Assembly: GCA_964632795.1 (NCBI GenBank)
Contig: CAZWEZ010000001.1
Location: 45,922 to 109,921 of the forward strand
Direction of reading: 5' to 3'
Origin: an uncultured Thalassospiraceae bacterium
GTDB taxonomy: Bacteria; Pseudomonadota; Alphaproteobacteria; Rhodospirillales; 2-02-FULL-58-16
Length of the DNA stretch: 64,000 nucleotides
Positions 2,930 to 44,775 of this stretch are shown here, one piece after another. The notes under the pieces are model-generated. The model had not been told where the DNA came from and made no database searches. It saw only the letters and a program-made list of their open reading frames with translations. The position numbers and the translations under genes were made by a program. Numbering within the stretch: position 1 is the first letter of the stretch; every line of letters begins with the position of its first letter.

Positions 2930-3182
2930 GCCTCGGGCCCTATCCTCCCGGTTATCCCCGGCCTTTCCGCCGGGGTGTTGACCGTCGACATCAGCGATCC
3001 ACCTAACGCAATTTCCATTGTTCCCTTCCCGTTGCCCACCGGGAAGGGCCTTTGTCCGCCTTTCTCCTTCGATGGTGAATCGTTCGGAAATCACGTACTT
3101 ATGTGTTTTCCTCTTGATAAATAGCATGCTTATGCGATACTGTGTTTCCCATGCCCTCATTGGCGACGGGAACGAGGATGTA

Positions 3183-14218: not shown

Positions 14219-14252
14219 CCGGGTTCGGTTTTCCGTACGCCGGGCCGGTGCG

Positions 14253-14288
14253 TGTTCTGATTTCCGAACAGAGCGCGGCATGCCGCGC
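14253..14288. promoter_or_regulatory. Two palindromes: candidate enhancer (UAS) sites or terminator of the regulator gene
   Basis: TGTTC-N8-GAACA at 14253..14270. Perfect 16-bp palindrome GCGCGGCATGCCGCGC at 14273..14288. The block ends 35 bp (begins 70 bp) upstream of the sigma54-like promoter. Confidence 0.35.
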
Positions 14289-14322
14289 CGCGGAATTCCT
14301 TGATTCTCTGCCTTTTCACCTC

Positions 14323-14338
14323 CGGCATGATTCTTGCT
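14323..14338 (+). promoter_or_regulatory. Candidate sigma54 (-24/-12) promoter for module 2
   Basis: CGGCATG-ATTC-TTGCT against consensus TGGCACG-N4-TTGCW. The GG and GC dinucleotides have the exact spacing. Lies 265 nt upstream of the FeS gene start at 14603. Confidence 0.5.
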
Positions 14339-14602
14339 CCTTCTGCCATCAATTAAACGATCATGACTGGGAGGAGTTCATAAAACATTGTCCGGCGATG
14401 GTCATTGCCGGCCGTTCCAATCTAATCATTTAGCAGCCGGAGGGCCGATTGGCTCCCTGGCGTTAATTCCGTGGCCAGCCGTAGGAAACGTCTCGCCCAT
14501 GGCAAGAATGGAATTGCCGTCCGGCTGGGAACGAAATCAGGTAGACGCGAAATGGCAAGAAGCCGATTGGGAGGAACAAAAAATGATGTGGAGTGACTTG
14601 AA

Positions 14603-15472: not shown

Positions 15473-15502
15473 GCCCCGCCGGATACAGGAGGACAACAGA
15501 AA

Positions 15503-21255: not shown

Positions 21256-21307
21256 AAACGACGAGTTTGGAGTAATAATTCATGCGATTGACCAGGAAAC
21301 TCCTGAT

Positions 21308-30130: not shown

Positions 30131-30491
30131 ATTATCATCCTCTCTGGATAACCGCGCACGATTGCCGTTATCTTTACATCCGAGTTATTTAGAGGGTTTG
30201 AATTCTGGGTGTATGCGGCGGGGCAACAGCAGTCCACGGAATCGGCCGTGAATCGGGCTGGAGGGAATTTCGCGTCACCTTTACTCCCTCACGACTGAGC
30301 ATGCGCCCTACGTACCACGGCTTTTTTTATTATGCAATGCCAAAACGACGGCCCGGCCTCGACAGAAAGCCGGCTTGTCCCGTCGTACCGACAATTATTG
30401 TTCGATTACTACTCACCATGGTCTGCAGGGAATATTACCTTCGGAAATTATGTTAATTTCAAGTATTGCGGAGAGATCGTTTCGGACAAGG

Positions 30492-31142
30492 TTAATTCGA
30501 TAGCATGCGGATATAGGCGGCCACATCGATAATTTCCGAGTCGCTGAATATCCCCTCCCACGGCGGCATGAATGTTTTTTGACCTTTCCGGATCGCTTTA
30601 ATGATGTCTTCGTCGCTTATCCCCTTCATGTCCTCTTTATTTGTGTAATCGATCACGGTAATTTGTATCAGGTGAGAAAGGAGGCCCTTTCCCTTGCCCC
30701 TTTTTCCATGGCATGACTTACAGGCACTATTATAGATAGCCCTGCCTCGGCGTGTGTCTCCCCTGAACTTGAGATCTTTCTTGTTCAAATTCTTAATGTG
30801 CGACGCGACATCGATCAATTCCTTCTTGGACAGCACCATGCCCCAGCTCGGCATTTTCGTAACATCGATCTGCCGGTAGTCCCCAATGGTGACGGCTAGA
30901 TCGTAAATGTTTTTTTCCTGATATTTCTTTGAAGCAAGATCCGAGGGTTCAATCTTAAGTTTTACTGCGACAGGCCCCTTGCTCTTGCCGTCCATCCCAT
31001 GGCAAACAAAGCAGTATCCGCGATAAAGATTGGCGCCCAGTAAAGGATTTGGTTCTTCTTGCGCGTATGTGACCATGGACAGTGTCACTGCCGAGATGAA
31101 TGCTGCAAACCACATCACTGATTTCATCTTAACATTTCCCAA
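30492..31142 (-). CDS. Periplasmic diheme cytochrome c (paralog of 22841..23485)
   Basis: 216 aa. Signal peptide. CFVCHG and CKSCHG sites. Colinear with the module 2 diheme protein. Confidence 0.85.
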   Translation of the reverse strand: MGNVKMKSVMWFAAFISAVTLSMVTYAQEEPNPLLGANLYRGYCFVCHGMDGKSKGPVAVKLKIEPSDLASKKYQEKNIYDLAVTIGDYRQIDVTKMPSWGMVLSKKELIDVASHIKNLNKKDLKFRGDTRRGRAIYNSACKSCHGKRGKGKGLLSHLIQITVIDYTNKEDMKGISDEDIIKAIRKGQKTFMPPWEGIFSDSEIIDVAAYIRMLSN

Positions 31143-31837
31143 GTTTCACGCGTTTAACTCCAGTTCTTGGAACAAACTTCTCCCGAGTGTGTCGCTCTCG
31201 GTCCTTGAACACAAGATTGCATCATGCGACGAGTCTGAGCGACTTTGCCGCGTTTCACTGCTTTGGGGCCAGTTCACGGTTCAACGACCAACGCCATCAG
31301 GATTCGGCGAACCATGCAACAGCCTCTGGCACATGGTAAACGGGGACGAGCCTCGCTTGCCCCATATGGCTCCCGGCCCCTCGACAGCAACCTCCCATGT
31401 ATAATATTAGATTTCAGTAATGTCCAGAATCTTCTGCAAATTGGTTCGCTCATGGTGCCGGTAATTCCCCGAGTATGGACGCTCTGAAGACATTGGCGAC
31501 CATGGCGTCATAGGTGGGCCTACAAATAGGAACGCCCGCATGATGGACTCGCCAACGGACCGCCAACCAATCGGCCGGCTGAGGCGGATGAACCGCACGG
31601 TCAATAGGCTCACGTTTCCCGAAAGAACATCCGCCTTGCGGCCGGCAAGCCATTGGGAACCACAGAGGATATCGTTGATTGTCCAACCGGATGCCATGAG
31701 GGGAGTGGTGCGGTCTGCGTGACCGTCGAGGAGATCAAACAGCATCCGTATTTCGCCCACCGGACGGGCGGATGGAGCGCCTTTACGACGAGGCCCTCCG
31801 GTATTATCGGCGCCAGGACGCCGCCCCCTTGAAATGA

Positions 31838-31884
31838 TTGGTCGGAGCGGCCGGATTCGAACCGGCGACCCCTACACCCCCAGT
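31838..31884. repeat. att direct repeat (displaced 3' part of tRNA-Pro)
   Basis: 47 bp TTGGTCGGAGCGGCCGGATTCGAACCGGCGACCCCTACACCCCCAGT, identical to 44698..44744. Confidence 0.9.
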
Positions 31885-32059
31885 ATATTTACCCCCTCCC
31901 CTAACCCCTTGAAAAGTATAGTGATCCAGGCCTGAAAACACCTTTGTTCTCAAGGGTTTATTTTTTGGTTTACGATTTGGTCAACTTCGAGGTAAAATAG
32001 GTTTACCTGATAATTTACCGGGAAATTTTACTCAAATTTTACCCGAGAGGGAGATCGAG

Positions 32060-33370
32060 ATGCCAAAGAAGGGGTACCAGAAGCGACGGCGGACACTCAC
32101 GCCAGCCTTCGTCATGAACTGTAAGAAGCCGAAACAGGGGGCGGTGTACTGGACCGATGAGGGGCACGTACCCGGCCTGACCTTCCACGTCGATCACGTC
32201 GGCAAGAGGACCTTCCGCTTCATGTACCGGGTCCTGGTGGGGAAGGAACGGGGGCCAACTCGAAAGTTGACCCTGGGCACTTATCCACAGATGACGCTTG
32301 CCGATGCCCGTTCCGAAGCGGCGAAGTATCACGATATGGCGAAGGACGGCATCGACCCCAAGGTGCAGCGCGACGAGGCGACGCTGGCGGTACAGCGGGA
32401 GGCCAGCAAGACCTTCAAGTCATACGCCGAGGACTACGCCGAGGCGGCGCTGGCCAGCAAGAAGGTCCGTCGATCAAAGGGCGGACCCGGGACCATCAGC
32501 CTGGAGGCGGCGAAGACCAGGGCCAGGGACCTCCGGGACGTCGTGATACCAGCCCTTGGTCATCGTCCGATCGCGGACATAACCAGGGCTGAGATCGCCG
32601 CCTTCCTGGACATGGTAGAGAAGGAGAAGAAGGCCCAAACTCGCGTCGATCGGATGTTGATCGCCATCAAGGCCGTCTTCAACTTCGCCGTCATGCGCGG
32701 CTACGTCGATGAGAGCCCGGCGCGCTCCATCGACACCAGGGCCGTCTTGAAGAAGCGCGACCACTCCCTAAACGACGACGAGATCAAGCCCGTATGGGAC
32801 GCCGCTGGCGCCGTCGGGGGGTCATTTGGGGCGGTGATCCGGATGCTCATGCTCACCGGCCAGCGGCTGGGGGAAATGGCAAAGGCAAGGTGGAGCGCCG
32901 TTGACTTCGACGAGGCCACGATGATGTTCCCCGGCGGGACCACCAAGCCTGGGCGAGACCACCTGATCCCCCTCTCCCGCCCGGCCATCGACGTGCTCTT
33001 ATCCCTACCCCGTGGTGGTGACAACGACCTCATATTCGGGCCGACTCTCATAACAGATAATTGGAAAAGGTTGATGCCGAAGCTCTACAAGGCAACGAGG
33101 GGCGAGGTCCGCCACTGGACCGCACACGATCTTCGGAGAACGGTGGCAGAGGGTTTGTCAAAACTGGACTACCACGACATGATTGTCGCCCTGATCCTCA
33201 ATCATGCGCCCGGCAAGGGAATGCAAACGACCCGCGATTATGTCCGAAAAGATCCAGTGAACTTGAAAGAGAAGCCGCTGAAAGATTGGGCCAAACACGT
33301 CATGAAAATCGTCAATCCGCCGCCGGACGGCGAGGTCGTCGATTTTCCGAGTAGGAGGAAGACGGCATGA
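32060..33370 (+). CDS. P4-type tyrosine integrase
   Basis: 436 aa. N-terminal arm-binding region (GLTFHVDHVGKRTFRFMYR). Catalytic region WTAHDLRRTVAEGL...NHAPGKGMQTTRDYVR (R..HxxR..Y). Confidence 0.92.
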   Translation: MPKKGYQKRRRTLTPAFVMNCKKPKQGAVYWTDEGHVPGLTFHVDHVGKRTFRFMYRVLVGKERGPTRKLTLGTYPQMTLADARSEAAKYHDMAKDGIDPKVQRDEATLAVQREASKTFKSYAEDYAEAALASKKVRRSKGGPGTISLEAAKTRARDLRDVVIPALGHRPIADITRAEIAAFLDMVEKEKKAQTRVDRMLIAIKAVFNFAVMRGYVDESPARSIDTRAVLKKRDHSLNDDEIKPVWDAAGAVGGSFGAVIRMLMLTGQRLGEMAKARWSAVDFDEATMMFPGGTTKPGRDHLIPLSRPAIDVLLSLPRGGDNDLIFGPTLITDNWKRLMPKLYKATRGEVRHWTAHDLRRTVAEGLSKLDYHDMIVALILNHAPGKGMQTTRDYVRKDPVNLKEKPLKDWAKHVMKIVNPPPDGEVVDFPSRRKTA

Positions 33371-33723
33371 CCACGAAGAAGCAACGAGTCCGCGCCCGGG
33401 CCGTCCTGAGCGACGTGTTCGAGCTCACGGGAAAGCTGGACGAAGGCGCGTCCCCCGAGGCAATGGCCTCGACGGCCATCGACAGGATCGAGCGGGAGCG
33501 GGCTGAGGCCAAGAACCGGCTCGACGAGACGGGAGACCGCCTCGTCAAGATGAGTGACCTGAGGGACCTGATCGGGCTCTCCCGGCAGGCGATCTACAAG
33601 AGGATAAGGCGCGGCACCTTCCCCAAGCCCATAGACCTGGGCGGTGAGGGTCCGGGGCACCGGGTGGCCTGGAAGATGTCGGAGATCACGGCCTGGCTCC
33701 AGGAGCGGGCGGCGGCGCGATGA
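33367..33723 (+). CDS. AlpA-family phage transcriptional regulator / excisionase-like protein
   Basis: ATGA overlap with the integrase stop. 'LIGLSRQAIYKRIRRGTFPKPIDLG...RVAWKMSEITAWL' is the AlpA HTH pattern. Confidence 0.8.
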   Translation: MTTKKQRVRARAVLSDVFELTGKLDEGASPEAMASTAIDRIERERAEAKNRLDETGDRLVKMSDLRDLIGLSRQAIYKRIRRGTFPKPIDLGGEGPGHRVAWKMSEITAWLQERAAAR

Positions 33724-33847
33724 GGCCGTAGCGTCTTCACCGGAGGCTGACGGCGGGGGGTGGCTGAACGGCCGCCCCTTCGCATGGGGGTTTATCCACC
33801 TAGCCCCGCAAGGTATACTAAATATTCCTTGTCATGGAGGAAGACCG

Positions 33848-34015
33848 ATGTCCGACACTGTGTTCACCTTCAAGGGTGGTCCCGAGCTCGAAGAGCTGAT
33901 CCAGCGGGAGCAAGAACGGCTCGCCCAACCCGGCGTGCGCGTCTCCCGCTCGGACGCCATCCGGTCCCTGGTGATGCGGGGAAGCGCGGCCGTCGATCGA
34001 CCGGAGGAAGATTGA
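33848..34015 (+). CDS. Small ribbon-helix-helix-like protein (55 aa)
   Basis: Internal ATG 33848 of ORF 33644..34015. 'TFKGGPELEELIQREQERL...VSRSDAIRSLVMRG' looks like a CopG/RHH beta-alpha-alpha unit. Confidence 0.5.
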   Translation: MSDTVFTFKGGPELEELIQREQERLAQPGVRVSRSDAIRSLVMRGSAAVDRPEED

Positions 34016-34092
34016 CGACAAGGAAACGCCCACCGGGGGTACCGGCGGGCGCTGTATTCGGTTGAAACGACCCCTGTGGAAAGGAAGCTTCG

Positions 34093-36714
34093 ATGTCCAA
34101 ACTACCCCAAAAACCCGCTGACGTAAACCCGATCGACTTCCTGCGGCGGTGGGAGCCCGAGGGGCCGTGGCTGCTGACGGCCATCGTGCCGGACGGGCGA
34201 GTCGATACCCGGTCCTTCGGCGCGGGGGACGAAAAGGCCCTCACCTCATGGCTCGACGGCGAGCGTAACCACTACTTCTCGGTCAACCGCCCCCGGGACG
34301 GCGTCACCGGCAAGGCGTCGAAGCCGGACATAGGGTACGCCCTGGCTCTACACGTGGACGTCGATCCCCGGATCAACGAGGACTTCGACGAGGAGCGGGC
34401 GAGAATCATGGCGCGGATCGAGGCCTTCGAGCCCCGACCGTCGGTGGTGATCGACTCCGGGGGCGGGTACCAGGCCTTCTGGCTGCTCCGCGAACCCGCG
34501 CCGGTCGAGGACGGTGGGGCCGAGGTCGAGGGGTACAACAGGCGGCTCGAGGCGCTCCTCGAGGGCGACCACTGCCACGACGTGAGCCGGATAATGCGGC
34601 TGCCGGGGACGACCAACAACCCCACGGAGAAGAAACGGGCCGCGGGCCGGATCCCGGCGCCGACCGCCCTCGTCCGGGCCGACTGGGACCTGCGGTACGA
34701 CCTGGAGGACTTCGAGACCGCCGGCGCAGGTCCCACGGCCTCGGACGTAGAGGTAGACGTGGACATACCCGCCGATGCCGGCGCCAAGATGTCGGACCTG
34801 GGCGGCCTGCCCGACGACCTCCGGCGCCTGATCGAGGACCCCCGGGCCGTCGATGACTACAAGGGCGACCGCTCCCGCCTCGTGTATGCCGTGGCCACTG
34901 GGTTGGTCCGGCTGAAATGGAGCAACGCCGATATTGCCGACGTGCTGCTCTTTAAGGATGACGGGCCAATATCGAAGCATGTCCACAAGCAAGGGAAAGG
35001 GCGAGAATACGCCAAGCGCCAGATTGCCCGGGCAAGGGCGGCGACCAGGAAGCCGACCGAGGCCGAGGTCCGCGAGTTTGCCGAAGAGGGCGACGCCTCG
35101 AACCCCGGAAGCTACGCCTCGGCGCTGGTCTCAAAGTGCATCGCCGCAGGCCTGAGCATCGTCAAGGTCGGGCCGATCTTCAAGATCGCCGCCCGGCACC
35201 TGGACGTGAACACCACCGAACTCAAGGCGCTCTGGCGGGAACGCTCCAAGGATGACGACGACGAAGCGCCAACCCAGGGGGCAATCCTCCTGGGCATCCT
35301 CGACGAGGCCGACCTCTGGCACGACCAGGACAAAGTCGGCTTCGCCACCTTCAAGCGCGACGGCCACCGCGAGAGCGTGCGGTTGAAAAGTAAGCGATTC
35401 AAGGAGTGGCTCAATTGGCGCTTCCACACCGAGACCGGCAAGGCACCGGCACGGGAGGCCATCAAGGGAGTGATCGCCAACGCCGAGGCGCGGGCCTTCT
35501 ACGACGGCACGGAACACCGCTCCTGGATCAGAGTCGCCGAACACGAAGGCCGCATCTATCTCGACCTGGGCGACGACGCCTGGACGATCATCGAGATAGA
35601 CGAGACCGGGTGGCGCGTCGTGAAAGACCCATCCGTCCGTTTCCGCCGAGGCGGTGGCCAGGCCCTCCCGATGCCGGTCCCAGGTGGCAAGGTCGAGGAG
35701 ATCTGGGAATTTATCAACGTGACCGACGAAGGCGACCGCAAGCTAATCCTCGGCTGGGCCGTCTGTAACTACCGGCCACGTCGTCCATTTACGATCCTCG
35801 ACTATTGGGGGGAGTCTGGCTCGGCGAAGACGACCGCGATGAGAGTCTCACGTAAATTCATCGACCCCTGTACCGCCGAGGCGAAGGGGATGCCAAAGAC
35901 AGAAGACGACCTGATGGTGGCGGCGGCGAACAATTGGGTATTCTCCGCCGACAACGTATCGAAGCTCACCTCGGATATGGGCGACGCCCTATGCCGCCTA
36001 TCCACCGGCGGCGGGCTCAGCAAGCGTGAGCTGTTCACGGACGGCGACGAGTTCACCCTCGACGCCCTACGCCCGATCATCATGACCGGGCTCTCGCTGA
36101 TCTCGGGGCAACAGGACCTCCTGAACCGGACGCTGCTGGTACGGCTCCCGAACCTCGCCGAAGCGGACATGGAGGATGAGGCCAAGTTCTGGCCAAGATT
36201 CGAGGAGGCCCACCCACGTATCCTCGGCGCGCTGCTCGACGCCGTTTCAACGGCGATCCGAAGACTCCCCGACGTGAAGCTCGACTCGATGCCGCGTATG
36301 GCCGATTTCGCCAAATGGAGTGAGGCCGCTGGGGAGGCCTTCGGTTGGCAACCGGGGGAGTTTGTCAAGGCGTATCAGGCGGCGCGCCAAGACCTCTTCA
36401 AGAACGTCGCCGAGACCGACCTCCTCACGAAAGTCATCGTGGAATACCTGGGCTCTACCGAGGGCGGTGAACTCAAGGGCACGGCGACCGAGTTGTTGGA
36501 AACACTTGATTCATGGTTGGACGACAAGGACCCGCGGAAACATGCGAAGGGATGGCCGACGAACGGCGTCTGGATGTCGCGGCGACTCAATGAAATTCCG
36601 CTCGGCCTCCGTGCCGCCGGCGTCACATTCGAGGCGGGCAAGGACCAGGGGCTCAACGTCTATACACTCACGCTGATGGACAAGGGAAGCCCGGACACTG
36701 AAATACCGTTCTAG
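34093..36714 (+). CDS. Replication protein: AEP-type primase domain fused to a P-loop NTPase (primase/helicase-like)
   Basis: 873 aa. AEP motifs LALHVDVD, VIDSGGGYQAFWLL and HDVSRIMRLPGTTN. Walker A GESGSAKTT lies in the C-terminal half. Confidence 0.8.
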   Translation: MSKLPQKPADVNPIDFLRRWEPEGPWLLTAIVPDGRVDTRSFGAGDEKALTSWLDGERNHYFSVNRPRDGVTGKASKPDIGYALALHVDVDPRINEDFDEERARIMARIEAFEPRPSVVIDSGGGYQAFWLLREPAPVEDGGAEVEGYNRRLEALLEGDHCHDVSRIMRLPGTTNNPTEKKRAAGRIPAPTALVRADWDLRYDLEDFETAGAGPTASDVEVDVDIPADAGAKMSDLGGLPDDLRRLIEDPRAVDDYKGDRSRLVYAVATGLVRLKWSNADIADVLLFKDDGPISKHVHKQGKGREYAKRQIARARAATRKPTEAEVREFAEEGDASNPGSYASALVSKCIAAGLSIVKVGPIFKIAARHLDVNTTELKALWRERSKDDDDEAPTQGAILLGILDEADLWHDQDKVGFATFKRDGHRESVRLKSKRFKEWLNWRFHTETGKAPAREAIKGVIANAEARAFYDGTEHRSWIRVAEHEGRIYLDLGDDAWTIIEIDETGWRVVKDPSVRFRRGGGQALPMPVPGGKVEEIWEFINVTDEGDRKLILGWAVCNYRPRRPFTILDYWGESGSAKTTAMRVSRKFIDPCTAEAKGMPKTEDDLMVAAANNWVFSADNVSKLTSDMGDALCRLSTGGGLSKRELFTDGDEFTLDALRPIIMTGLSLISGQQDLLNRTLLVRLPNLAEADMEDEAKFWPRFEEAHPRILGALLDAVSTAIRRLPDVKLDSMPRMADFAKWSEAAGEAFGWQPGEFVKAYQAARQDLFKNVAETDLLTKVIVEYLGSTEGGELKGTATELLETLDSWLDDKDPRKHAKGWPTNGVWMSRRLNEIPLGLRAAGVTFEAGKDQGLNVYTLTLMDKGSPDTEIPF

Positions 36715-36720
36715 GCTCCG

Positions 36721-36840
36721 GGCGGTAAAACGGTAAAAGCGGTATTTTTCTCACCTTAATAGGGACCTAAAAAACACACCTTATTCTTTTTCACCTACCT
36801 ATTAAGATCGGGAAAATACCGCTTTTACCGCTTTACCGCC
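36721..36840. repeat. Nested inverted repeat with iteron-like GGTAAAA units (ori-like)
   Basis: Outer arms are GGCGGTAAAACGGTAAAAGCGGTATTTTT (36721..36749) and GAAAATACCGCTTTTACCGCTTTACCGCC (36812..36840), 27/29 complementary. An inner CCTTAATAGG/CCTATTAAG pair and an AT-rich centre lie between them. Confidence 0.8.
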
Positions 36841-37213
36841 CCGGGATGGCCCTCCTGAGTGGGCAAAAACGCGACGGGACGCCCACGCCGCTGCCCCGAG
36901 AAAAACACGCCCTCCCCGACCCCTCCGAAACGGCGAGCACTATAGTAGAGGTGTAAGGGTCAAATAACCCGTAATCCTTTGTGGATAAGGGTTTGACCGC
37001 CAACCCACCAGTGGGGGGTTTACGCTCGATCAAATTTAGGTTAAATTTCCGTCCATAGATCGCCCCCGAACCGTTGGCCAATGGCCACCCCTTCACCGGC
37101 CGATCGCAGCCGCTTCGGCAGTGCCGGACGGTCCCGTCAATGGCGGGTTCCCAGCGACAGTGTCGCATCCGTTTCACCGTCCCCCGCTTGGGGCACAACG
37201 GCAGGATTCCGTG

Positions 37214-37606
37214 ATGAGCAAGGACACGAACGCCAGCAAGGTCTCCAACGGCTCGTGCCTGTGGGTCGAGCCCACCGACGGCCGCCGCGCCCCGGCCCGT
37301 CGCTACCGGGACCTCTACAACGACCTCCTGATCGAGATCGGGGGTCCGGGGCCGAAGATCACCGAGCCCCAACGCCAGCTATGCCGCCGCGCCGCCGGCC
37401 TGATGATCCTGGCCGAGCGCAGCGAGTGCGCGATGGCCAACGGTGAGGTGGTCGATCCGGGTGCCTACGTGAAGATATGCGGCTCCCTGTCGCGGGTCCT
37501 CGTCGCCTTGGGCATCGAGCCCGCCCCTCCGGGCCAGGAGGAGGCAACCCCGACCCTGGCCTCCTACTTCGCCCCCCATGGTGGCGACGCGCCGGGCAAT
37601 GATTGA
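37214..37606 (+). CDS. Putative small terminase subunit / hypothetical phage protein
   Basis: Internal ATG 37214 of ORF 37121..37606. Immediately precedes and overlaps the large terminase. No motif recognised, so the call is positional. Confidence 0.4.
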   Translation: MSKDTNASKVSNGSCLWVEPTDGRRAPARRYRDLYNDLLIEIGGPGPKITEPQRQLCRRAAGLMILAERSECAMANGEVVDPGAYVKICGSLSRVLVALGIEPAPPGQEEATPTLASYFAPHGGDAPGND

Positions 37607-39053
37607 TGACCCCTTCCCCGACCATCGACGACGGCACCCTACGGGGGACCGCTCCTTGACCCGACCCGACGCCCCGAGCCCCCTGGACTTCTTCGGCCAC
37701 CTCCGGTGGATCGACGGTCGCCCCCTGCCCGCCGTGATCGAGCCCTACCGCGCCCGCATCCTGGAGGACGTGCTTTGGTCGTTCGACGCCGACGGCCGCC
37801 CGAAGTTCAATCTCGCCCTCCTGGGCCGAGCGAAGAAGAACTGGAAAACGACCGACCTGGTCCTGGCCGCGTTTTACAAGTTCTTTATCTGGCCCTCCCC
37901 TGCGGGGAACGACGGCTTCATCCTGGCCAACGACGAGGGCCAGGCCGACGACGACCTGTCCCTGGCCAAGAAGCTGATCGAGGCGAATCCCGCCCTCGCC
38001 AACGAGGTCGAGGTCTTCAAGAAGGAGATTCGCCGGACCGATGGCCGAGGCTCCCTAGAAATCCTCCCCGCCAAGAACGTCGCCGGACAACACGGCAAGA
38101 CCTACCTGTTCGTTGGCTTCGACGAGATCCACGCGTACCGGAACCACGACCTGTTCGAGGCCCTGGCCCCGGACCCGACGCGCCCCGACGCGCTGACCTG
38201 GGTCACGTCCTACGCGAGCCTCTACAACAACGTCGGCGCCCCCCTCCACGACATGGTGAAGAAGGGCCAGGCCGGTGACGACCCCCGGATGCTCTTCTCC
38301 TGGTACTCCGGCGACCTCTGCACCGACCCCGCCTTCGCCGACCTCGACACGCCCGAGGCCCGCGCCAACCCGAGCGTGTCCACCTGGGAGGACGACGGCT
38401 ACCTCGCCCAGCAGCGCCGTCGCCTGCCCTCGAACAAGTTTCGCCGCTTGCACTTGAACCTCCCGGGTGCCCCCGACGGTGCGTTCCTCGACGCGGCCAA
38501 AGTCCAAGGTTGCATCGTCGAGGGCCGCCGCCAGCTTCCGCCGTGCGAGGGTGTCAGTTACGTGGGCTTCGTGGACATGTCGGGTGGCTCCAACGACGAT
38601 GCGACCCTGGCGATTTCCCATCGCGGCGAGGAGGACCGGGCCATCCTGGACTTCGTTGACTGCCAGGCCGGCCGGCCACCGTTCGACCCCCGGGCGGCGG
38701 TGCGGAAGTTCGCCGGGATCTTGAAGGAATACGGCTGCGCCCGCGTCGTGGGCGACGCCTACGCCGGGGAGACCTTCCGCCGCGACTTCGAGGCCGAGGG
38801 CATCATCTACCGCAAGTCGCCCCTCACGAAGTCGGCGATCTACGAGGCCTTCGAGCCGGTCGTCAATGCCGGCGACGTGGAGCTCCTCGATCACGCGACC
38901 TTGGAGGCCCAGCTTCTCACCCTCGTCCAGCGCGGGGCTCGCGTAGATCACCAAAGTGGCGACCACGATGATTTTTCCAACGCCGCGGCCGGCGCCGTCT
39001 ACCTCGCCGCCGCCCCCGTCGAGGTCCGCCGTACCCTCGCCCTTCGCATGTAG
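37578..39053 (+). CDS. Phage terminase large subunit
   Basis: 491 aa. ATPase-like segments LLGRAKKNWKTTD and TYLFVGFDEIHAY. C-terminal nuclease-like segment YVGFVDMSGGSNDDATLAISH...DHQSGDHDDFSNA. Confidence 0.8.
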   Translation: MVATRRAMIDDPFPDHRRRHPTGDRSLTRPDAPSPLDFFGHLRWIDGRPLPAVIEPYRARILEDVLWSFDADGRPKFNLALLGRAKKNWKTTDLVLAAFYKFFIWPSPAGNDGFILANDEGQADDDLSLAKKLIEANPALANEVEVFKKEIRRTDGRGSLEILPAKNVAGQHGKTYLFVGFDEIHAYRNHDLFEALAPDPTRPDALTWVTSYASLYNNVGAPLHDMVKKGQAGDDPRMLFSWYSGDLCTDPAFADLDTPEARANPSVSTWEDDGYLAQQRRRLPSNKFRRLHLNLPGAPDGAFLDAAKVQGCIVEGRRQLPPCEGVSYVGFVDMSGGSNDDATLAISHRGEEDRAILDFVDCQAGRPPFDPRAAVRKFAGILKEYGCARVVGDAYAGETFRRDFEAEGIIYRKSPLTKSAIYEAFEPVVNAGDVELLDHATLEAQLLTLVQRGARVDHQSGDHDDFSNAAAGAVYLAAAPVEVRRTLALRM

Positions 39054-39065
39054 GAGGCACATCAA

Positions 39066-40505
39066 ATGCCCGTAAACACCCCCCACGCTCAATTCATGTC
39101 CCGCTCCGCTCAGTGGGAACGGGTCCGCGACGCCCTCGCTGGCCAGGATCGAGTCCGGTCCAAGGCCTTGACCTACCTCCGCAAGCCGGCGGCGATGGAC
39201 CTGGAATCATTCAACAGCTACGCCCGGGCCGCGACGTGGTTCCCGGCCACCGCCCGGACCCTGGCCGGCCTCACGGGCGCGATCTTCCGCCGCCCGCCGA
39301 TGATCCAGGTGCCGGACTCCGACCTCCTGGGGGATGTCGATCGGCTGGGGACCCCCTTCGACGTGCTCGCCAAGCGCGTCGTCGAGGAGGTGATCGCCGT
39401 CGGCCGTCACGGGGTGCTGGTCGATGCCCCGTCGGCCGAGATCGAAAGTGGCTCGCCCTACTTGGCCACGTTCCCGGCCGAGAGCATCGTCAACTGGCGC
39501 ACCGCCAACGTGGGCGGCGGGCCGAAGCTGACGCTGGTCGTCTTGAGGGACGACACTACGAGGCCCAAGGAAGAAGACCGCTTCGCCGTCGCGGCCATCG
39601 AGCGGTATCGGGTCCTCGAGCTCAGCAACGTAGATGGACGCCGCGATCCGGTCTACACGATTTCTCTGTTCGAGCGGCGGAACACCCCCCACATGGGTGA
39701 AGACCTGACCCTGGTCGAGGGGCCGATCATCGCGCTGAGGCGTGGTGAGCCGCTGACCTTCATCCCGTTCCAATTTTTCGGACCCACCACCCTGGAACCC
39801 GCCATCGAAATGCCGCCGCTCCTGGGCCTAGCCGACCTGAACTTCTCGCATTTCCGTACCACCGGCGAGTATGAAAACAGCTTGTGGCACTGCGGATTTC
39901 CGATCTTTGCGATCAGCGGTCAACTCAGCGGTCCCGAGGCCGAGGGGGCCACTGAACTCCGGGCCGGATCGTCGGTCATCTGGCAGCTCGAACAGGGGGC
40001 GAAGGCCGAGGTCTTGCAGGGCAGCGCCGACAACGTCGGAGCCCTCAAGGAGGCCCTGGAGCGCAAGGAGCAGGCACTTGCGGCCATCGGGGCCAGGATG
40101 CTGGAACCCCAGCAGAGCGGGAATCCTGAGCATCATTCAACTGTCGCCTTGCGCCACCGGGGCGAGGACGCGATTCTTTCCGTGATCGCATCGACCTCCG
40201 GACGTGGGTTCACCCGCGTCCTGGACGTGCTGACGTGGTGGTCCGGCCAGGCGGATGAGCCGACCGGCGCGACCAGTGTCGAGCTCAATAGCGACTTCAT
40301 GCCTCAGGGTATGACCGGCGCCGAGGTCGTGCGGTGGGTTTCCGCATGGCAAGCGAACGGAATCGGGTTGTCCGTACTTCACCACAATCTCAAAAAGGGT
40401 GAGGCTTTGCCCGAGGGGATGGAGCTGGACGATCTCGCGGCCGACATCGAGAATCGCGGCCCCCAGGCCGCCTTCATGGGCGACCTTACAGACGAGGAGG
40501 AATGA
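39066..40505 (+). CDS. Phage portal protein (DUF4055-type, by pattern memory)
   Basis: 479 aa. Follows terL. The N-terminal 'SAQWERVRDALAGQDRVRSKALTYLRKP' and the size fit this portal family. Confidence 0.65.
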   Translation: MPVNTPHAQFMSRSAQWERVRDALAGQDRVRSKALTYLRKPAAMDLESFNSYARAATWFPATARTLAGLTGAIFRRPPMIQVPDSDLLGDVDRLGTPFDVLAKRVVEEVIAVGRHGVLVDAPSAEIESGSPYLATFPAESIVNWRTANVGGGPKLTLVVLRDDTTRPKEEDRFAVAAIERYRVLELSNVDGRRDPVYTISLFERRNTPHMGEDLTLVEGPIIALRRGEPLTFIPFQFFGPTTLEPAIEMPPLLGLADLNFSHFRTTGEYENSLWHCGFPIFAISGQLSGPEAEGATELRAGSSVIWQLEQGAKAEVLQGSADNVGALKEALERKEQALAAIGARMLEPQQSGNPEHHSTVALRHRGEDAILSVIASTSGRGFTRVLDVLTWWSGQADEPTGATSVELNSDFMPQGMTGAEVVRWVSAWQANGIGLSVLHHNLKKGEALPEGMELDDLAADIENRGPQAAFMGDLTDEEE

Positions 40506-40509
40506 CGAC

Positions 40510-40716
40510 ATGCTCACAGAAACTAACATCGCGGCCGAAAGCCTGTTGAAGACGAAACGCGCCCGGCTGAAGGACGTGATCGCCGAGCTCGACGACCACG
40601 GCGCCGAAGGGGTGGCGAAGGCGGCGTGGAGGCGGGACCCTTTGGGCGCCATTTGCCACATCTGCAAACTGCCCCTGGAACGGGTGAAACAACTACAGCA
40701 AATCGCAGGAGTTTGA
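40510..40716 (+). CDS. Hypothetical phage protein (68 aa)
   Basis: Internal ATG 40510 of ORF 40399..40716, 2 nt after the portal stop codon (TGA at 40503..40505). Confidence 0.4.
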   Translation: MLTETNIAAESLLKTKRARLKDVIAELDDHGAEGVAKAAWRRDPLGAICHICKLPLERVKQLQQIAGV

Positions 40717-40719
40717 CCA

Positions 40720-41433
40720 ATGGACAACATCCAACGCACCGCACTTTTCGGAAGCGCACCCGAGACCCTGGCGACCGCCGACACCTCTGCCGGGGCCTCG
40801 GCTGGGCGACCGCTGGCGGCCGCGGCATGGTTCCGCGCCGTCGGCATCGTGGACGAGCTCGAGGCCACCCGGGAGCTGATCGAGGGCGACGTGGAATTGA
40901 GCCGCAGCGGCAAGGACAAGAAGTTGTCCCGAGCCTGCCGCGACGCCCAGGCGGCATTGGGCAAGATCGCCGAGCACCGGGACACCCTGGCCGCCGAACT
41001 GGAGGGCGCCCGGAAGCGATGCCGACCCGAGGGCGAGCCCGACCCGACGGTCAACGCGGCGATCTGGCCGAAGCTGCCCGACGAGGAAATCAGCATGGCC
41101 ACGACCTACCGTGACGCGGTGGAGCGGCAGGACTGGGCGACCTGCGACGCGATCGAAACGTTACCTTCGGTCTTCGACGGGTCCCTCACGCCCGATGAAG
41201 TGGCGGCCTTGGTGCGCGACCGGATGGCGGTCCAGTCTCCCGACGCGCTCAAGGCCGCCGACCTCGCCGCGGAGATCCACGGCGCGGTTGATGTCGCCCT
41301 GGGCCACGCCATCGGCTTCGTCGAGGACATGGCCCGGCCACTGCCGGACCCCGCCGACGGCGGCGAGGCCCAGGTCGGGGACGACGGGCTCCGCATCCTG
41401 TCGGCCTCGCAGTTCGCCGAGGCGACCGGATGA
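40720..41433 (+). CDS. Hypothetical phage protein (237 aa)
   Basis: High-GC ORF tightly packed after 40716. Acidic, helical-looking. No motif recognised. Confidence 0.55.
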   Translation: MDNIQRTALFGSAPETLATADTSAGASAGRPLAAAAWFRAVGIVDELEATRELIEGDVELSRSGKDKKLSRACRDAQAALGKIAEHRDTLAAELEGARKRCRPEGEPDPTVNAAIWPKLPDEEISMATTYRDAVERQDWATCDAIETLPSVFDGSLTPDEVAALVRDRMAVQSPDALKAADLAAEIHGAVDVALGHAIGFVEDMARPLPDPADGGEAQVGDDGLRILSASQFAEATG

Positions 41434-41681
41434 CGACTGCCTACAGGTGGTGGAAAGACGCGCCGCCGGAACAGCGAGCCGAGGCCGAACGTCGGCGCCG
41501 CGCGGGCCTGCGCCGCTACCGGGCGAAGGTCGAGGCGGAACGCCTGGCCACGACCACTGAGCGGCTGTGTCTCAATTGCCGGGAGCCCTTCCCCAGCGAG
41601 GGTCGGGGCAACTGGCTTTGCGACAACTGCCGTGGGCTAGACGCCGGGATGTTCGACAACGTGGACGCGGGGCTGAGTTAA
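41430..41681 (+). CDS. Hypothetical zinc-ribbon protein (83 aa)
   Basis: ATGA overlap with the upstream gene. CLNC-x17-CDNC four-Cys knuckle. Confidence 0.5.
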   Translation: MTTAYRWWKDAPPEQRAEAERRRRAGLRRYRAKVEAERLATTTERLCLNCREPFPSEGRGNWLCDNCRGLDAGMFDNVDAGLS

Positions 41682-41723
41682 TAAGGGCTCTTCGCGTGGC
41701 AACCAGAAAAGTGGTCCTCATTA

Positions 41724-41753
41724 TTGGTTTTATTGTGAGCGAACCTGTGTAAT
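41724..41753 (+). promoter_or_regulatory. Candidate sigma70 promoter of the low-GC operon
   Basis: TTGGTT (41724..41729), an 18-nt spacer, then TGTAAT (41748..41753). Confidence 0.35.
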
Positions 41754-41786
41754 ATGGCTGCGGGTGATCTTAAGGGTAGGGCGTAT

Positions 41787-42446
41787 ATGGTATTCTGGAT
41801 ATTTAAAGCTTCAGTCGTGGTACAGGCTGAATCTCATAACCCAACCATCTTGCATCCCGCCTTTTTAAATACTGAAGGCATTGTAGGCGATGATTGGGAA
41901 GTGAAGGGAGATCCAATAGTTACGCCTGTATTTTCACAGGTAGTATATTCGAACGGTATTAGTTTCCTGGCTGAACCAAACAAGTTCCAAGTGAGTGACG
42001 GCCGGCCGCCAAAGGACGCAGGTAGATCTCTAGCCCCAGATTTGGCAGCTAAATACATCAAGCGGCTCCCCCACACACCCTATACGGCGATCGGACTGAA
42101 TCTGGCAGCGTGCCTCATCACACCATCCCCGCAGGAAAGCCTAGTTCAACTATTATTAAAAGAAGGGCCTTGGAACGAAGGCAAGTTATCGTTGCAGGCA
42201 GCGGGTTTTCAGTTTAGGTATGCTGCTCCATCGGCACAGCTAAATTTGTCTTGTAAGGCTGGAAAGATAGCAAAGAAACCTGGGGACGAACCCTCTCCAG
42301 CCATTATCATCGAGGCGAATTACCACACTGTTTTGCCCCAGGATAAGAAGGCTGTTGGCCCTGCCACTCGCGCAATTACGAAATATAGCAAGCGGTGCAA
42401 CCACTTGATGAAGACATTGGACACCATTTTTGAGTTAGGAGAATAG
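41787..42446 (+). CDS. Orphan protein A of the low-GC three-gene operon (219 aa; alternative start 41754)
   Basis: ATG 41787 follows AAGGGTAGGG. No TM helix or signal peptide. 'ESHNPTILHPAFLNTEGIVGDDWEV...'. No family recognised. Confidence 0.7.
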   Translation: MVFWIFKASVVVQAESHNPTILHPAFLNTEGIVGDDWEVKGDPIVTPVFSQVVYSNGISFLAEPNKFQVSDGRPPKDAGRSLAPDLAAKYIKRLPHTPYTAIGLNLAACLITPSPQESLVQLLLKEGPWNEGKLSLQAAGFQFRYAAPSAQLNLSCKAGKIAKKPGDEPSPAIIIEANYHTVLPQDKKAVGPATRAITKYSKRCNHLMKTLDTIFELGE

Positions 42447-42449
42447 TCG

Positions 42450-42860
42450 ATGACGGCTCCGTTCGATGGTGCGACCACCCGTGGGACTGAACCTACGCTG
42501 CTTACCTCAAGGCTGGGGGCGCGGGTCATGGAACTGATTCCAGGCATGATGGAACTGATTCCAGACATGTCAGAGGCTGACGTCGATCCGAACCTTTCGA
42601 ATCAGGAAATGAGGTTTTCCACTGAACAAAGGGTGGCTCTCAATAAGCTGTGGTCTGTCTGCAAGATTCCGGATGGGGGGGAGGTATATTTTTTATCCAC
42701 AGGGCTGCAAGAGGCCGCCAAGGTGCAACCTGATGATGAGCTTGACTGGGGTTTTTCAGTTGAGGTACCTCCTGCCCGACGCAGTCGAAAGATCAAGATT
42801 AAGTTGCTCAGAAAGGGGCGTGGCAAGCCTGCGCTTAATCTTTCGGCTGATGAAGGTTGA
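42450..42860 (+). CDS. Orphan protein B (136 aa)
   Basis: ATG 42450 follows AGGAGAA, 3 nt after the gene A stop. Tandem MELIPGM/MELIPDM, an acidic centre and a basic tail RRSRKIKIKLLRKGRGKP. Confidence 0.7.
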   Translation: MTAPFDGATTRGTEPTLLTSRLGARVMELIPGMMELIPDMSEADVDPNLSNQEMRFSTEQRVALNKLWSVCKIPDGGEVYFLSTGLQEAAKVQPDDELDWGFSVEVPPARRSRKIKIKLLRKGRGKPALNLSADEG

Positions 42861-43390
42861 CGGGGGATATCGTGGCTGACGGAAAATATCCGTGGTTCAA
42901 AGTTGTTACTGGAACCAATCTGGAGCAAGGGGACATTCTCGAAACTTCTCCTGTTCTCCTCACTCCCCCGGATGTACTCATCAAGGATGAGTTGGAGGTT
43001 GAGGTCGAGGAGCGTGATGTAATTGTAATGTCTCAAACATGCGACCTCATGAACAATAAGATTCCAGACGTTCTTTTGACCGCAGTATGGGAGCTTTCGG
43101 AAGTAAAAAACGATCTAGGTCACACTAAGGAGCAAGAAAAAGCGAGGCAAGGACATTTCCCTTCTCTCCACATGCTGAATAAGTGTTCTCTCAAAGGGTA
43201 TGAAAGGGAAGTTCGAATTGTAGATTTTCGTAGTGTCTACACTCTTCCGGTTAACGTGGCTTGCGAACATGCCAAAAATCTTAAAGAACGCATCAGGCTT
43301 CTGCCCCCCTACCGCGAACATCTTTCCCAAGCCTTTGCGCGGTACTTCATGCGCGTAGGGTTGCCAAATGATATTCCGAGATTTCGCTAA
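42857..43390 (+). CDS. Orphan protein C (177 aa; alternative GTG start 42872)
   Basis: Overlaps the gene B stop by 4 nt. 'GDILETSPVLL...DVIVMSQTCDLMNNK...LPPYREHLSQAFARYFMRVGLPNDIP'. No family recognised. Confidence 0.7.
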   Translation: MTGDIVADGKYPWFKVVTGTNLEQGDILETSPVLLTPPDVLIKDELEVEVEERDVIVMSQTCDLMNNKIPDVLLTAVWELSEVKNDLGHTKEQEKARQGHFPSLHMLNKCSLKGYEREVRIVDFRSVYTLPVNVACEHAKNLKERIRLLPPYREHLSQAFARYFMRVGLPNDIPRFR

Positions 43391-43513
43391 TATTGGAGTT
43401 CAGTTGATATGGCGGGCATATGGGATTAGTAACCCCAAAATCCTGGCTGGCGTCCGCTCCTGAAGGCCTGCCTGCCCGCATAACGGAACGTCTCCATTGG
43501 GTCACAATCGGCC

Positions 43514-43690
43514 CTAACCCCCCGCCTCCAACGTAGTCGGCTTTGCCTGTAGCAGCGGCCTCCACTCGCGGAGCGCCGTCGCGCAATCGCCCCGTTTATA
43601 GGCTGCCAAGCCCTCATCGAACCCCGCCTGGGCAGGAGCGGCGAGGCACACCACCAACCCGACCAGCGCCGCCGCGACTGATCTTCTCAT
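43514..43690 (-). pseudogene. Truncated Sel1/TPR-like secreted protein fragment (58 codons)
   Basis: Not in the track because it is under 60 aa. 'MRRSVAAALVGLVVCLAAPAQAGFDEGLAAYKRGDCATALREWRPLLQ...' is a signal peptide plus the start of a first Sel1-like repeat, followed by an early stop. Host-like GC. Confidence 0.4.
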
Positions 43691-43831
43691 TGTCCGCCTC
43701 CCCGTCCACGCGAACTATAGCGCATCCCAGCGTCGCGATGGTAGGGTGAGATGCAGGTTGGCGACGACGCCGAAAACCAGAGGATATCTGTCCCAGGCGC
43801 CGGAGCAACACTGAGAAAGGGAGTGACTATC

Positions 43832-44347
43832 ATGAATATCGATCAAGGAGAGCAGCCTACGACATTTGCCGACGCTGGTTACGGGAGCATTCTCGAAACG
43901 ACGATCGAAAATACGCGATTGGTCCGGGTTATGAAGGCACACTCGCCTATTGATGAAGGGGAAAAATTCGTGACGCTTGGACCGTTCCACAATGACGACA
44001 ACTCTCTTCCGAGCATCCATTACCCGAGAGAGTTAACAGCGAGCCCCGTCTTTGACGTTACCGAACACTGCCAGTTCATCCCATCCTTGTCTCCTGTGGA
44101 TCTTCTTGCTGCCCCACCGGGGGGGCGGGACAACACCGGAAAAGTGTTTGTTTCACCTGATCACATCGTCTTGGGAGTTTTTTCACATGCAGACAATATG
44201 GTGTACTATTTAAACCTCCGTTCTGGCGCGATATCGATTGATCTCGTTCTTGACCAATTTTATACCACCTCCCGCTGGACCATCAAAAGCACGGTGGAAA
44301 AGAAAAATATGGATGTCCTGGTCAACTTCCCGGGTGATGTTGGATAG
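43832..44347 (+). CDS. Orphan low-GC protein D (171 aa)
   Basis: Internal ATG 43832 of ORF 43751..44347, behind GAAAGGGAG. No motif recognised. Confidence 0.6.
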   Translation: MNIDQGEQPTTFADAGYGSILETTIENTRLVRVMKAHSPIDEGEKFVTLGPFHNDDNSLPSIHYPRELTASPVFDVTEHCQFIPSLSPVDLLAAPPGGRDNTGKVFVSPDHIVLGVFSHADNMVYYLNLRSGAISIDLVLDQFYTTSRWTIKSTVEKKNMDVLVNFPGDVG

Positions 44348-44355
44348 TACCCTCG

Positions 44356-44691
44356 GGCTTCGCCGCATGGGCCGAGCGGCGGCTGGGGGAGCTGATCCGG
44401 GCACAGAAGGAGACCGTGGGGCTCCATGAAGGAGGCCGTCCTCCTAAAACCGGTTCCCCGACGGCACCGGTTTCCAAGCCCCCCACCCTCGCCGAGGCCG
44501 GGATCGACAGGAAACTATTCAGCCGGGCCTCTTCTCCCCGTGGGCTGTTCAACTCAACCGCTCGACGTTCGCGCCGACGCCCAGGGTCGAGCCGGGGAGC
44601 CGCTGGTGGTAGGGCAAAATTTTACCCACATTTTTACCCAAACAAGAAAGAGGGCCGCCGAAGCGACCCTCATTATCTGCTAGGCCCTTGA
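44356..44691 (+). pseudogene. 5'-truncated remnant of a prophage-associated gene
   Basis: The frame reads '..AAWAERRLGELIRAQKETVGLHEGGRPPKTGSPTAPVSKPPTLAEAGIDRK..' with no start upstream. By memory this pattern recurs in alphaproteobacterial prophage regulatory proteins. Confidence 0.3.
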
Positions 44692-44697
44692 TTTTGT

Positions 44698-44744
44698 TTG
44701 GTCGGAGCGGCCGGATTCGAACCGGCGACCCCTACACCCCCAGT
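44698..44744. repeat. att direct repeat (inside the intact tRNA-Pro)
   Basis: Identical to 31838..31884. Confidence 0.9.
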
Positions 44745-44775
44745 GTAGTGCGCTACCAGACTGCGCCACGCTCCG
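44699..44775 (-). tRNA. tRNA-Pro (anticodon GGG)
   Basis: The reverse complement is CGGAGCGTGGCGCAGTCTGGTAGCGCACTACACTGGGGGTGTAGGGGTCGCCGGTTCGAATCCGGCCGCTCCGACCA, 77 nt. All four stems pair. Anticodon loop CTGGGGG. Confidence 0.92.

Follow-up and report, generated by a model that had tools for sequence, protein, structure and literature searches.

The window analysed here, that is, the whole stretch of 64,000 nucleotides (nt) from contig CAZWEZ010000001.1 of an uncultured Thalassospiraceae bacterium, contains, in the only tRNA gene that ARAGORN calls in it, a tRNA-Pro(GGG), an element of 12.9 kb bounded by att repeats, which is probably an integrated member of a rare and modular family of phage satellites. 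The element carries a terS-like gene, a large terminase (TerL) gene and a portal gene, followed by the gene of a helical protein, here called o2, and none of its open reading frames (ORFs) tested against Pfam and PHROG matched a capsid, protease or tail family (Table 1). This gene complement is most likely undescribed for phage satellites, and the hallmark protein, o2, most likely belongs to no known fold family.

The argument begins with the recurrence of the layout. The same core, composed of a terS-like ORF, TerL, the portal and an o2 of ~235 amino acids (aa), was found in no fewer than five further elements from unrelated metagenomes, with portals 46–56% identical to that of the window, the relatives of this portal in metagenome assemblies ranging over 45–56%; three of the elements show a unit of 13–14 kb. 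Two of these relatives are contigs that each start and end with the same sequence of ~45 bp, resembling a tRNA 3′ end, and the identity of the ends makes them complete att-bounded units, in the size class of the 12.9 kb of the window element. The first (L048; 14,184 bp) is a homologue of the whole window element, with 47% identity in the terS-like protein, 55% in the portal and 43% in o2, and consists of integrase, AlpA, small ORFs, RepB_primase, D5_N/DUF5906 helicase, a 141-aa ORF, TerL, portal, a 235-aa ORF and cargo; the second (L053; 13,514 bp) consists of integrase, an AEP-TOTE/D5_N primase-helicase, a 130-aa ORF, TerL, portal, a 232-aa ORF and cargo. Their end repeats differ from each other and from those of the window, and ARAGORN called no whole tRNA at them. 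A JGI contig of 12,909 bp holds integrase, AlpA, primase-helicase, a 126-aa ORF, TerL, portal and ORFs of 236 and 69 aa. Two other members are chromosomal insertions: one, seen at two loci (L050 and L051), has an AAA_25 replication protein, a 123-aa ORF, TerL, portal and ORFs of 275 and 79 aa, with Phage_int_SAM_3 at the far end, and is bounded in L051 by 100%-identical direct repeats of ~1 kb (2070–3069 and 20495–21286), which duplicate part of a 344-aa gene; the other (L052) adjoins tRNA-Pro(TGG) and tRNA-Arg, and has Dam, a D5_N helicase, a 137-aa ORF, TerL, portal and ORFs of 266 and 73 aa. Finally, a contig of 4.7 kb (L062) opens within TerL and is limited to TerL, portal and o2. By tblastn, o2 was recognised as the ORF that follows the portal in L048, L050, L052, L053 and L062. 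The L050 copy, near-identical to L051, has gained insertion sequences (DDE_Tnp_1) and lost the integrase end.

Around this core, the integrases (P4-type or Phage_int_SAM_3), the replication modules (RepB_primase with D5_N, AEP-TOTE with D5_N, AAA_25, or Dam with D5_N), the insertion sites and the cargo differ between elements, and genes for capsid, protease, connector, tail or lysis were found in none of these relatives, whose conserved core has no room for a protease, an adaptor or a connector. Compared in this way, the window element very probably belongs to a conserved family of capsid-less elements defined by terS, TerL, portal and o2. Two other loci look like decayed members of it: L057, in a Rhodospirillales metagenome-assembled genome (MAG; 10001–12605), where the portal is truncated at ~352 aa and followed by an unrelated integrase, and L061, which is described below.

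The terL and portal genes named in the original prediction are both present. The portal matches phrog_145 (1e-95) over profile positions 8–474 of 493, as well as DUF4055 (1.5e-27) and the solved portal 8xb5 (2.8e-43), and no second portal turned up in the genome. In TerL, the Walker B pair DE (D182, E183) and the acidic residues of the nuclease half (D333, D393, D464, D465) are invariant in six family members. The family TerL is only ~25% identical to the TerL of cultured phages, and exists with two unrelated-looking N-terminal ATPase halves, with Walker A motifs GRAKKNWK[TS] and GRR[SG]GKS, joined to one conserved nuclease half; L062 is the nearest to the window in the portal tree (57% identity), and it bears the other type of TerL, so that domains have been swapped within the family. 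As for the small ORF that overlaps the start of TerL, the part of the prediction that stands is the existence of a conserved gene, always immediately upstream of TerL in L048, L053, L052 and L057 (32–47% identity), the 123-aa ORF of L050 in the same position being only 18% identical; its identity as TerS was confirmed by no profile (Pfam, PHROG, NCBIfam, PDB), and its AlphaFold2 (AF2) model (pLDDT 73, three helices) gave no fold match. By its motif pattern, it may resemble the P27-family small terminases. Across the family, the packaging proteins are intact at 45–59% aa identity, with their catalytic residues invariant, and the packaging module thus reads as a stable chimera, preserved without damage across deep divergence, which is the signature of function and not of decay.

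Decay is nevertheless the first alternative to be weighed, given that the original prediction had left a choice between a satellite that exploits the structural proteins of a helper and a prophage in which low-GC cargo took the place of the morphogenesis module. In the second case the element would be a decayed prophage, an inert remnant whose head, tail and lysis genes were lost to low-GC foreign DNA, and it is true that the GC content falls as predicted, from 0.62–0.73 to 0.45–0.52, at ~41.7 kb, where structural genes would continue, that gene fragments had been noted near attR, that no helper was found, and that decay does occur in the family (the truncated portal of L057; the portal stub with o2 of L061). 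However, the same gene set is present in at least five independent elements with differing integrases, replication modules, sites and cargo, and because the layout recurs with such different parts, a single deletion event in this genome is no explanation for it. Moreover, the packaging genes are intact and the units measure 13–14 kb across the family, and in all of them the scaffold/capsid block is replaced by o2, for which tblastn found no match in 50,697 phage genomes. That independent decay should lead to one and the same end point is very unlikely; an inert remnant is thus improbable, and the recurrence of the layout in independent elements favours the satellite.

The second matter is whether a capsid is hidden in the element. 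Capsid or tail genes were sought among the hypothetical ORFs at 40510–41681, and none was recognised, which leaves the element without them, as first described. The scans, which took in all ORFs of at least 80 aa taken for genes, gave no match to capsid, tail or lysis modules in the att-bounded unit, nor, among the ORFs at 40510–44691, any Pfam or PHROG match to a head maturation protease, a head-tail adaptor or a connector. A capsid disguised as one of the hypothetical ORFs was considered and rejected, o1 and o3 having 68 and 83 aa and o2, the sole candidate large enough for a capsid protein, being modelled as all-alpha with a pLDDT of 93.9. In the relatives o2 follows the portal directly, without o1, which had no match in the libraries scanned (PHROGs and PADLOC); the C-terminal motif of o3 is partly kept in L048 (44% over 36 aa).

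The protein o2 is therefore best described by its own family. A word-indexed protein search with the o2 alignment gave few matches, and HMMER, run exhaustively over 1.84 billion representative proteins, gave 62 related clusters, nearly all of 220–270 aa. The AlphaFold2 model, computed from a 48-sequence alignment (pTM 0.84), is entirely alpha-helical, with two long helices, and as modelled o2 fits neither the HK97 capsid fold nor a protease. Foldseek found nothing significant (best E 0.35 in PDB and 0.73 in BFVD), the profiles of Pfam, PHROGs, PADLOC, NCBIfam and PDB sequences gave nothing or coiled-coil noise, and o2 was absent from all 400 other genomes sampled from the phylum. It occupies the position of the scaffold in scaffold-type phages and forms a long helical bundle, and from this position and architecture it is proposed that it could act as a scaffold, as a capsid-size factor or as a factor for the incorporation of the portal. 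The more specific idea that o2 is a diverged phage scaffold gained no support: hhalign against the scaffolds of two of the phages considered below (L054 and L056) gave a probability below 1%, and no fold or profile matched.

A conserved helical protein placed right after the portal, with no match to a known fold, might also suggest a minimal autonomous virus, or a producer similar to a gene transfer agent, with a non-HK97 shell made of o2 or of another orphan protein. To our knowledge, all known portal/terminase systems package into HK97-fold shells; a coiled-coil bundle of 237 aa is typical of a scaffold and not of a shell, there are no tail, lysis or other structural genes, and none of the other ORFs is conserved from one element to the next, all of which makes such a virus very hard to credit.

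The phages with related portals indicate what the element would be missing. In those whose portals are 42–47% identical, and where the flank sufficed, the portal is followed by a scaffold, a MuF-type minor head protein and/or a major capsid protein: three of them (L054, L056 and L065; 42–44% identity) have MptE-like, Phage_scaffold and phrog_283 major head proteins downstream of the portal, with phrog_283 matches in these loci of 4e-67 and 2e-73, and in a fourth (L063; 47%) the portal is followed by a scaffold-like protein and by another that looks MuF-like by eye. L056 is a prophage, with an S24 repressor, in a Rhodospirillaceae MAG. In L054 the MuF-like minor head protein (680 aa; 13591–15633) contains an intein (Pfam Intein_splicing). 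In the maximum-likelihood tree of portals, six o2-linked portals and L063 form a clade (support 97/96), which nests in a clade with L054, L056 and L065 (99/99), and the o2-linked group may have a single origin. The TerL of these four phages is of the unrelated Terminase_6C type, and the family TerL has no relative in them; the cultured relatives of the portal include phiCbK-like Caulobacter phages and the Dinoroseobacter phage R5C, at ~31–34% identity. Judged by these sequences, the portal probably came from metagenomic phages with phrog_145 portals, and the helper is probably a phage of this type.

If so, a cycle can be proposed in the following terms: (i) upon infection by a helper, or its induction, the integrase and AlpA would excise a 12.9-kb circle at the 47-bp att core; (ii) the AEP primase/P-loop protein would replicate this circle from the palindromic origin at 36720–36841; (iii) the satellite portal would be built into procapsids made of the major capsid and scaffold proteins of the helper, o2 aiding the incorporation of the portal or setting a smaller shell; (iv) the private terminase, that is, the terS-like protein and TerL, would recognise the DNA of the element and dock on its own portal; and (v) the completion and tail proteins of the helper would finish the particle. 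As likely helper one would expect a phage that combines a phrog_145 portal with Phage_scaffold and phrog_283 capsid proteins, the gene set of the phages with 42–44% identical portals. The central step, a portal substitution in which the element provides portal, terminase and o2 and the helper capsid polymerises around a portal that only the satellite motor can use, is put forward tentatively, with somewhat less than even confidence. The portal is known to nucleate capsid assembly and to co-evolve with the capsid protein (10.1101/2025.02.15.638363), and given this, together with the 42–47% identity, a satellite portal would be a plausible route for the takeover of the shells of that clade. Satellite genomes of 11–18 kb accompany small capsids (PMC13669383; PMC12772148), and a genome of 13–14 kb fits heads of the T=4 class, such as those of P4 and SaPI1 (PMC13669383).

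In sum, we infer with reasonable, if measured, confidence that the element is a helper-dependent satellite. Several points weigh against this: the element is known here from its sequence, and excision, helper dependence and packaging are proposed from it; a search of the whole assembly gave no extra att junction; and the 96%-complete MAG holds no candidate helper prophage, the searches with Phage_capsid, phrog_283, Phage_portal, TerL_ATPase, Terminase_6N/6C and the capsid protein of L054 being all negative, so that the helper would be a non-resident phage. Likewise, the TerS role of the small ORF is read from its position; TerL and portal differ in their phage affinities, and their cooperation is assumed; the proposed role of o2 also comes from position, homology giving it no support; and no experimental precedent was found for a satellite that supplies a portal without a capsid protein. 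To this must be added two loci in which o2 appears in other company, namely a TARA contig (L060; 2101–2772) where a distant relative, which matches the family profile at E 1e-44, is flanked by RecT and a terminase gene, and L061 (2490–3366), where o2 is intact beside a portal stub of ~50 aa and a PIN/PhdYeFM pair; the o2 fold may thus serve some function independent of the portal.

The DNA that follows o2 and o3 leads to the remaining alternative. This slot is a variable cargo site, filled in the window by the low-GC genes (41754–44347), in L048 (10750–13900) by HEPN_Swt1 with DUF6994, on the other strand, in L053 (11166–13357) by ThsB_TIR with 8xMP and YfbU, and in L052 (12676–17812) by Abi_alpha with a ParA-like ATPase. 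The four cargo ORFs of the window had no Pfam or PADLOC match, the latter sought for defence annotation, and these orphan genes may form an undescribed defence system. One might go further and take the whole element for an integrative island of defence or interference, whose portal and terminase would be decoys that poison the assembly or packaging of phages, and which would move rarely and not in particles: ThsB_TIR, HEPN_Swt1 and Abi_alpha are among the cargo of the relatives, satellites and islands commonly interfere with helper assembly, and no helper was seen in the genome. This is unlikely, however, since an intact TerL, a terS-like gene, a replication module with its origin and the narrow size of 13–14 kb suit packaging and not a decoy, and since in known satellites interference and transfer can coexist.

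There remains the way in which the element is inserted. The predicted exact 47-bp direct repeats, which duplicate the 3′ part of tRNA-Pro(GGG), are there; a 32-nt core within them has two copies in the window, where shuffles lead one to expect 0, and only these two across the assembly (3.78 Mb, 184 contigs). The window sits within a contig of 128 kb, and since host genes flank the element on both sides within it, the insertion is not an assembly join. No exact empty tRNA-Pro site could be rebuilt from species-level relatives, because the left flank, with its multihaem cytochrome genes, is not syntenic with tRNA-Pro in them. Immediately outside attL, the left flank (30400–31200) has a GC content of 0.445–0.48 and codes for a dihaem cytochrome c (Cytochrome_CBB3, 8e-24), and may represent foreign DNA that entered this site earlier. 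In four of nine relatives of the same family, tRNA-Pro(GGG) is the point where the contig breaks (ends of L006, L008, L009 and L012), and in another (L004) a second, partial copy of the tRNA lies 1.1 kb from the gene (134–182 and 1256–1332), which hints at a recurrent integration site.

The distribution of the element in turn contradicts a region fixed and syntenic across the genus. The portal was found in none of 14 genomes from the same bacterial family, each of which has the tRNA-Pro and the right flank, and, at 32% identity, in one of 46 others from the order; a scan of 185,579 species genomes gave only four relatives of the portal, of which two belong to Rhodospirillales MAGs, where one is a true prophage and the other has a truncated portal. 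This rarity of the portal in the family and the order, and that of o2 in the phylum, indicate a recent and rare acquisition.

At its front end, the element carries the genes that had been predicted. The integrase is of the P4 type (Arm-DNA-bind_3 3e-19, Phage_int_M 6e-12, Phage_integrase 9e-12) and 57% identical to that of L048, and the AlpA gene is 71% identical to its homologue there. The protein of 873 aa holds as a replicase with an AEP-type primase and a putative P-loop NTPase: it matches the DNA primase phrog_1829 (5e-15) and, below the cut-off of that family, RepB_primase (5e-5), it shows by sequence the AEP motifs HVDVD, GGGYQAFW and RLPGTTN and a deviant Walker A, GESGSAKT, and its N-terminal 300 aa are 37% identical to the RepB_primase gene of L048; as a query against viral contigs, it had no match. 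The supposed ribbon-helix-helix (RHH) protein, for its part, gained no profile support, NCBIfam, the only library scanned, giving no match; L048 has a 56-aa ORF at the equivalent place. The ori-like structure stands as an inverted repeat, whose arms carry three copies of GGTAAAA around an AT-rich centre, and L048 presents the same architecture where its helicase gene ends, an AT-rich centre being flanked there by GGTACC repeats; the palindrome is a candidate origin of replication.

The repeats of this palindrome link it to the ends of the element. All seven GGTAAAA heptamers of the 64-kb window lie inside the element, in the attL arm, the palindrome and the attR arm, the GGTAAAA/TTTTACC clusters being at 31991–32043, 36724–36829 and 44620–44638. 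In L048 the motif co-varies, TTTTACC being replaced by TTGTACYC (seven copies against 0.8 expected), and this motif or GGTACC is found in the same three places (184–212, 6160–6290 and 6478–6485, 14063–14082). In the attL arm, GGTAAAA lies at 31991 and 32037, with a promoter-like site at 31969–31998, and the TTTTACC/GGTAAAA cluster is a candidate for the arm sites of the integrase; ~2/3 of the columns of this arm are identical to the same region of L048, despite the different tRNA in the latter, and a block of 30 nt just inside attL is common to both. On the other side, the TTTTACC motifs and the terminator-like hairpin of the attR arm both align with the matching end of L048. Roughly 55–65% of the columns of both non-coding arms are identical between window and L048, counted anew as identical columns given that the two-row figures of the tool (78–83%) cannot drop below 50%. 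The hairpin, with a T-run after it, stands immediately downstream of the 3′ end of tRNA-Pro, is supplied by the element and is kept in L048; on integration, the element thus seems to replace the terminator of the tRNA gene. This conserved architecture of att arms and origin, with motifs that co-vary, suggests working sites of recombination and replication, at which one DNA-binding protein, or proteins of related specificities, would act.

Table 1. Features of the tRNA-Pro element in order along the window, with the TerL genes of the family in the last line
Feature	Position	Strand	Basis
attL, the 3′ 47 nt of tRNA-Pro(GGG) in a displaced copy	31838..31884	.	exact 47-bp direct repeat
attL-proximal arm	31885..32059	+	conserved block (CCTAACCCCTTGAAAAGTATAGTGATCCAG), TTTTACC/GGTAAAA cluster, promoter-like site upstream of int
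Tyrosine integrase, N-terminal arm-binding domain, P4-type architecture	32060..33370	+	Pfam
AlpA-family helix-turn-helix regulator or excisionase	33367..33723	+	Pfam Phage_AlpA 1.2e-11
56-aa ORF, possibly RHH-type regulator	33845..34015	+	translation
873-aa replication protein, N-terminal AEP-type primase and C-terminal putative P-loop NTPase	34093..36714	+	PHROG/Pfam, motifs
Origin-like palindrome	36720..36841	.	55-nt arms, 84% complementary
terS-like small protein, 130 aa from internal ATG, overlaps TerL start	37214..37606	+	conserved position
Large terminase (TerL), apparently intact	37578..39053	+	phrog_9 2e-26; TerL_ATPase 2e-4
Portal, DUF4055/phrog_145 type, full length	39066..40505	+	profiles
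o1, 68-aa ORF between portal and o2, coding status uncertain	40510..40716	+	specific to window element
o2, 237-aa all-helical, coiled-coil-rich protein; family hallmark	40720..41433	+	AF2, HMMER
o3, 83-aa protein, two CxxC pairs (zinc-ribbon-like)	41430..41681	+	phrog_13335 (unknown function) 3e-9
Three-gene low-GC cargo operon (230, 136, 177 aa)	41754..43390	+	GC 0.45–0.52
Fourth low-GC cargo ORF, 198 aa	43751..44347	+	no Pfam/PADLOC match
attR-proximal arm	44616..44671	.	two TTTTACC motifs (44620–44638) and terminator-like hairpin (44650–44671, minus strand)
attR repeat (44698–44744) within intact tRNA-Pro(GGG) gene (44699–44775)	44698..44775	-	ARAGORN; repeat
TerL genes of the family	window 37578–39053; L048 6926–8344; L052 8584–9987; L053 6101–7537; L050 8586–9986; L062 1–1299		

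Among known systems, the element recalls the phage-inducible chromosomal islands of the capsid-forming kind (cf-PICIs), reportedly described by Alqurainy et al. in 2023. Like them, it is an integrative element of ~10–15 kb with integrase, alpA, primase-replicase, a terS or terS-like gene, terL and portal, its packaging genes are derived from phages, and its virion would depend on a helper; the front end of integrase, AlpA and primase-replicase and the pair of terL and portal are indeed found in the window. However, a cf-PICI builds its own head, for which the major capsid, maturation protease, head-tail adaptor and connector are the core, and the window element has none of these, no match to Phage_capsid or phrog_283 being found anywhere in the genome. 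Its portal, moreover, is of the DUF4055/phrog_145 type, with an ancestry in scaffold-type and not protease-type phages, and it carries o2. In the cfPICI model of SatelliteFinder, terL, the head-tail adaptor and the connector are the distinguishing genes, capsid genes are carried, and 9–11 of the 11 components are required; the PICI model forbids the portal and the head-tail connector (PMC10085698). The full-length portal of the window breaks this last rule, and the element falls outside both the cf-PICI and the PICI definitions.

With PICIs, including the Staphylococcus aureus pathogenicity islands (SaPIs), and with P4-like satellites, the element shares the front end of integrase, alpA and primase, integration in a tRNA or another specific site and a size of ~11–15 kb, and with the P4-like ones also the domain architecture of the integrase (Arm-DNA-bind_3) and AlpA. 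These satellites have a variable hotspot of cargo or defence genes (PMC9122126), as the window family does, and o2, as a small helical protein with a possible role in capsid redirection, may be compared with P4 Sid and SaPI CpmB. Whole-library scans of the main ORFs (Pfam, PHROGs, NCBIfam) named no Sid, Psu, Delta or alpha-type primase of the P4-like satellites, families not searched for by name, and CpmA/B and Ppi homologues were not detected either. The difference is that P4-like satellites, PICIs and SaPIs use the portal and TerL of the helper, whereas the window element has its own, together with an AEP-type primase.

The marine integrative mobile elements encapsidated in virions (VEIMEs), the PICI-like tycheposons and the minimalist chromosomal islands inducible by phages (PICMIs) are likewise small, often associated with tRNA genes, mostly metagenomic and from uncultured bacteria, with integrase, AlpA and primase and without capsid. 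The texts that describe them give terS or a capsid gene for packaging and do not name a portal or a large terminase (10.1101/2022.07.26.501625; 10.1101/2020.12.28.424599; PMC10803314); according to the VEIME preprint, most of these elements are without capsid-like structural genes and small terminase subunits are listed, the portal being unmentioned (10.1101/2022.07.26.501625). PICI-like tycheposons, in particular, have terS or a capsid gene, and EPIPs have terS, connectors, a scaffold and a tape-measure protein. The tailed phages L054, L056, L065 and L063 have a similar portal, but in them it is followed by MptE-like, MuF-like, scaffold and phrog_283 genes. In the literature searched, which omitted some journals, no satellite was found described that has both TerL and a portal and lacks a capsid gene.

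Known satellites either take the finished head of the helper, with its portal and TerL (P4, PICI, PLE, PICMI), or build the head themselves (cf-PICI), and an element with only a portal and a packaging motor sits between these two groups. If this interpretation is true, it would reveal that such elements escape the satellite detectors now in use, since the models of these forbid the portal or demand a capsid gene; it would assign a role to o2, a protein family of no known fold or function; and it would make the slot after o2 a likely place for new anti-phage genes. It would also explain how a satellite could achieve exclusive packaging without making a capsid, and offer a natural system for studying how a capsid protein and its scaffold accept a foreign portal. 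In other words, the portal vertex itself could be the point of parasitism, and this would constitute a third strategy beside the redirection of capsid size, as in P4, SaPI and PLE, and the self-built capsids of the cf-PICIs.

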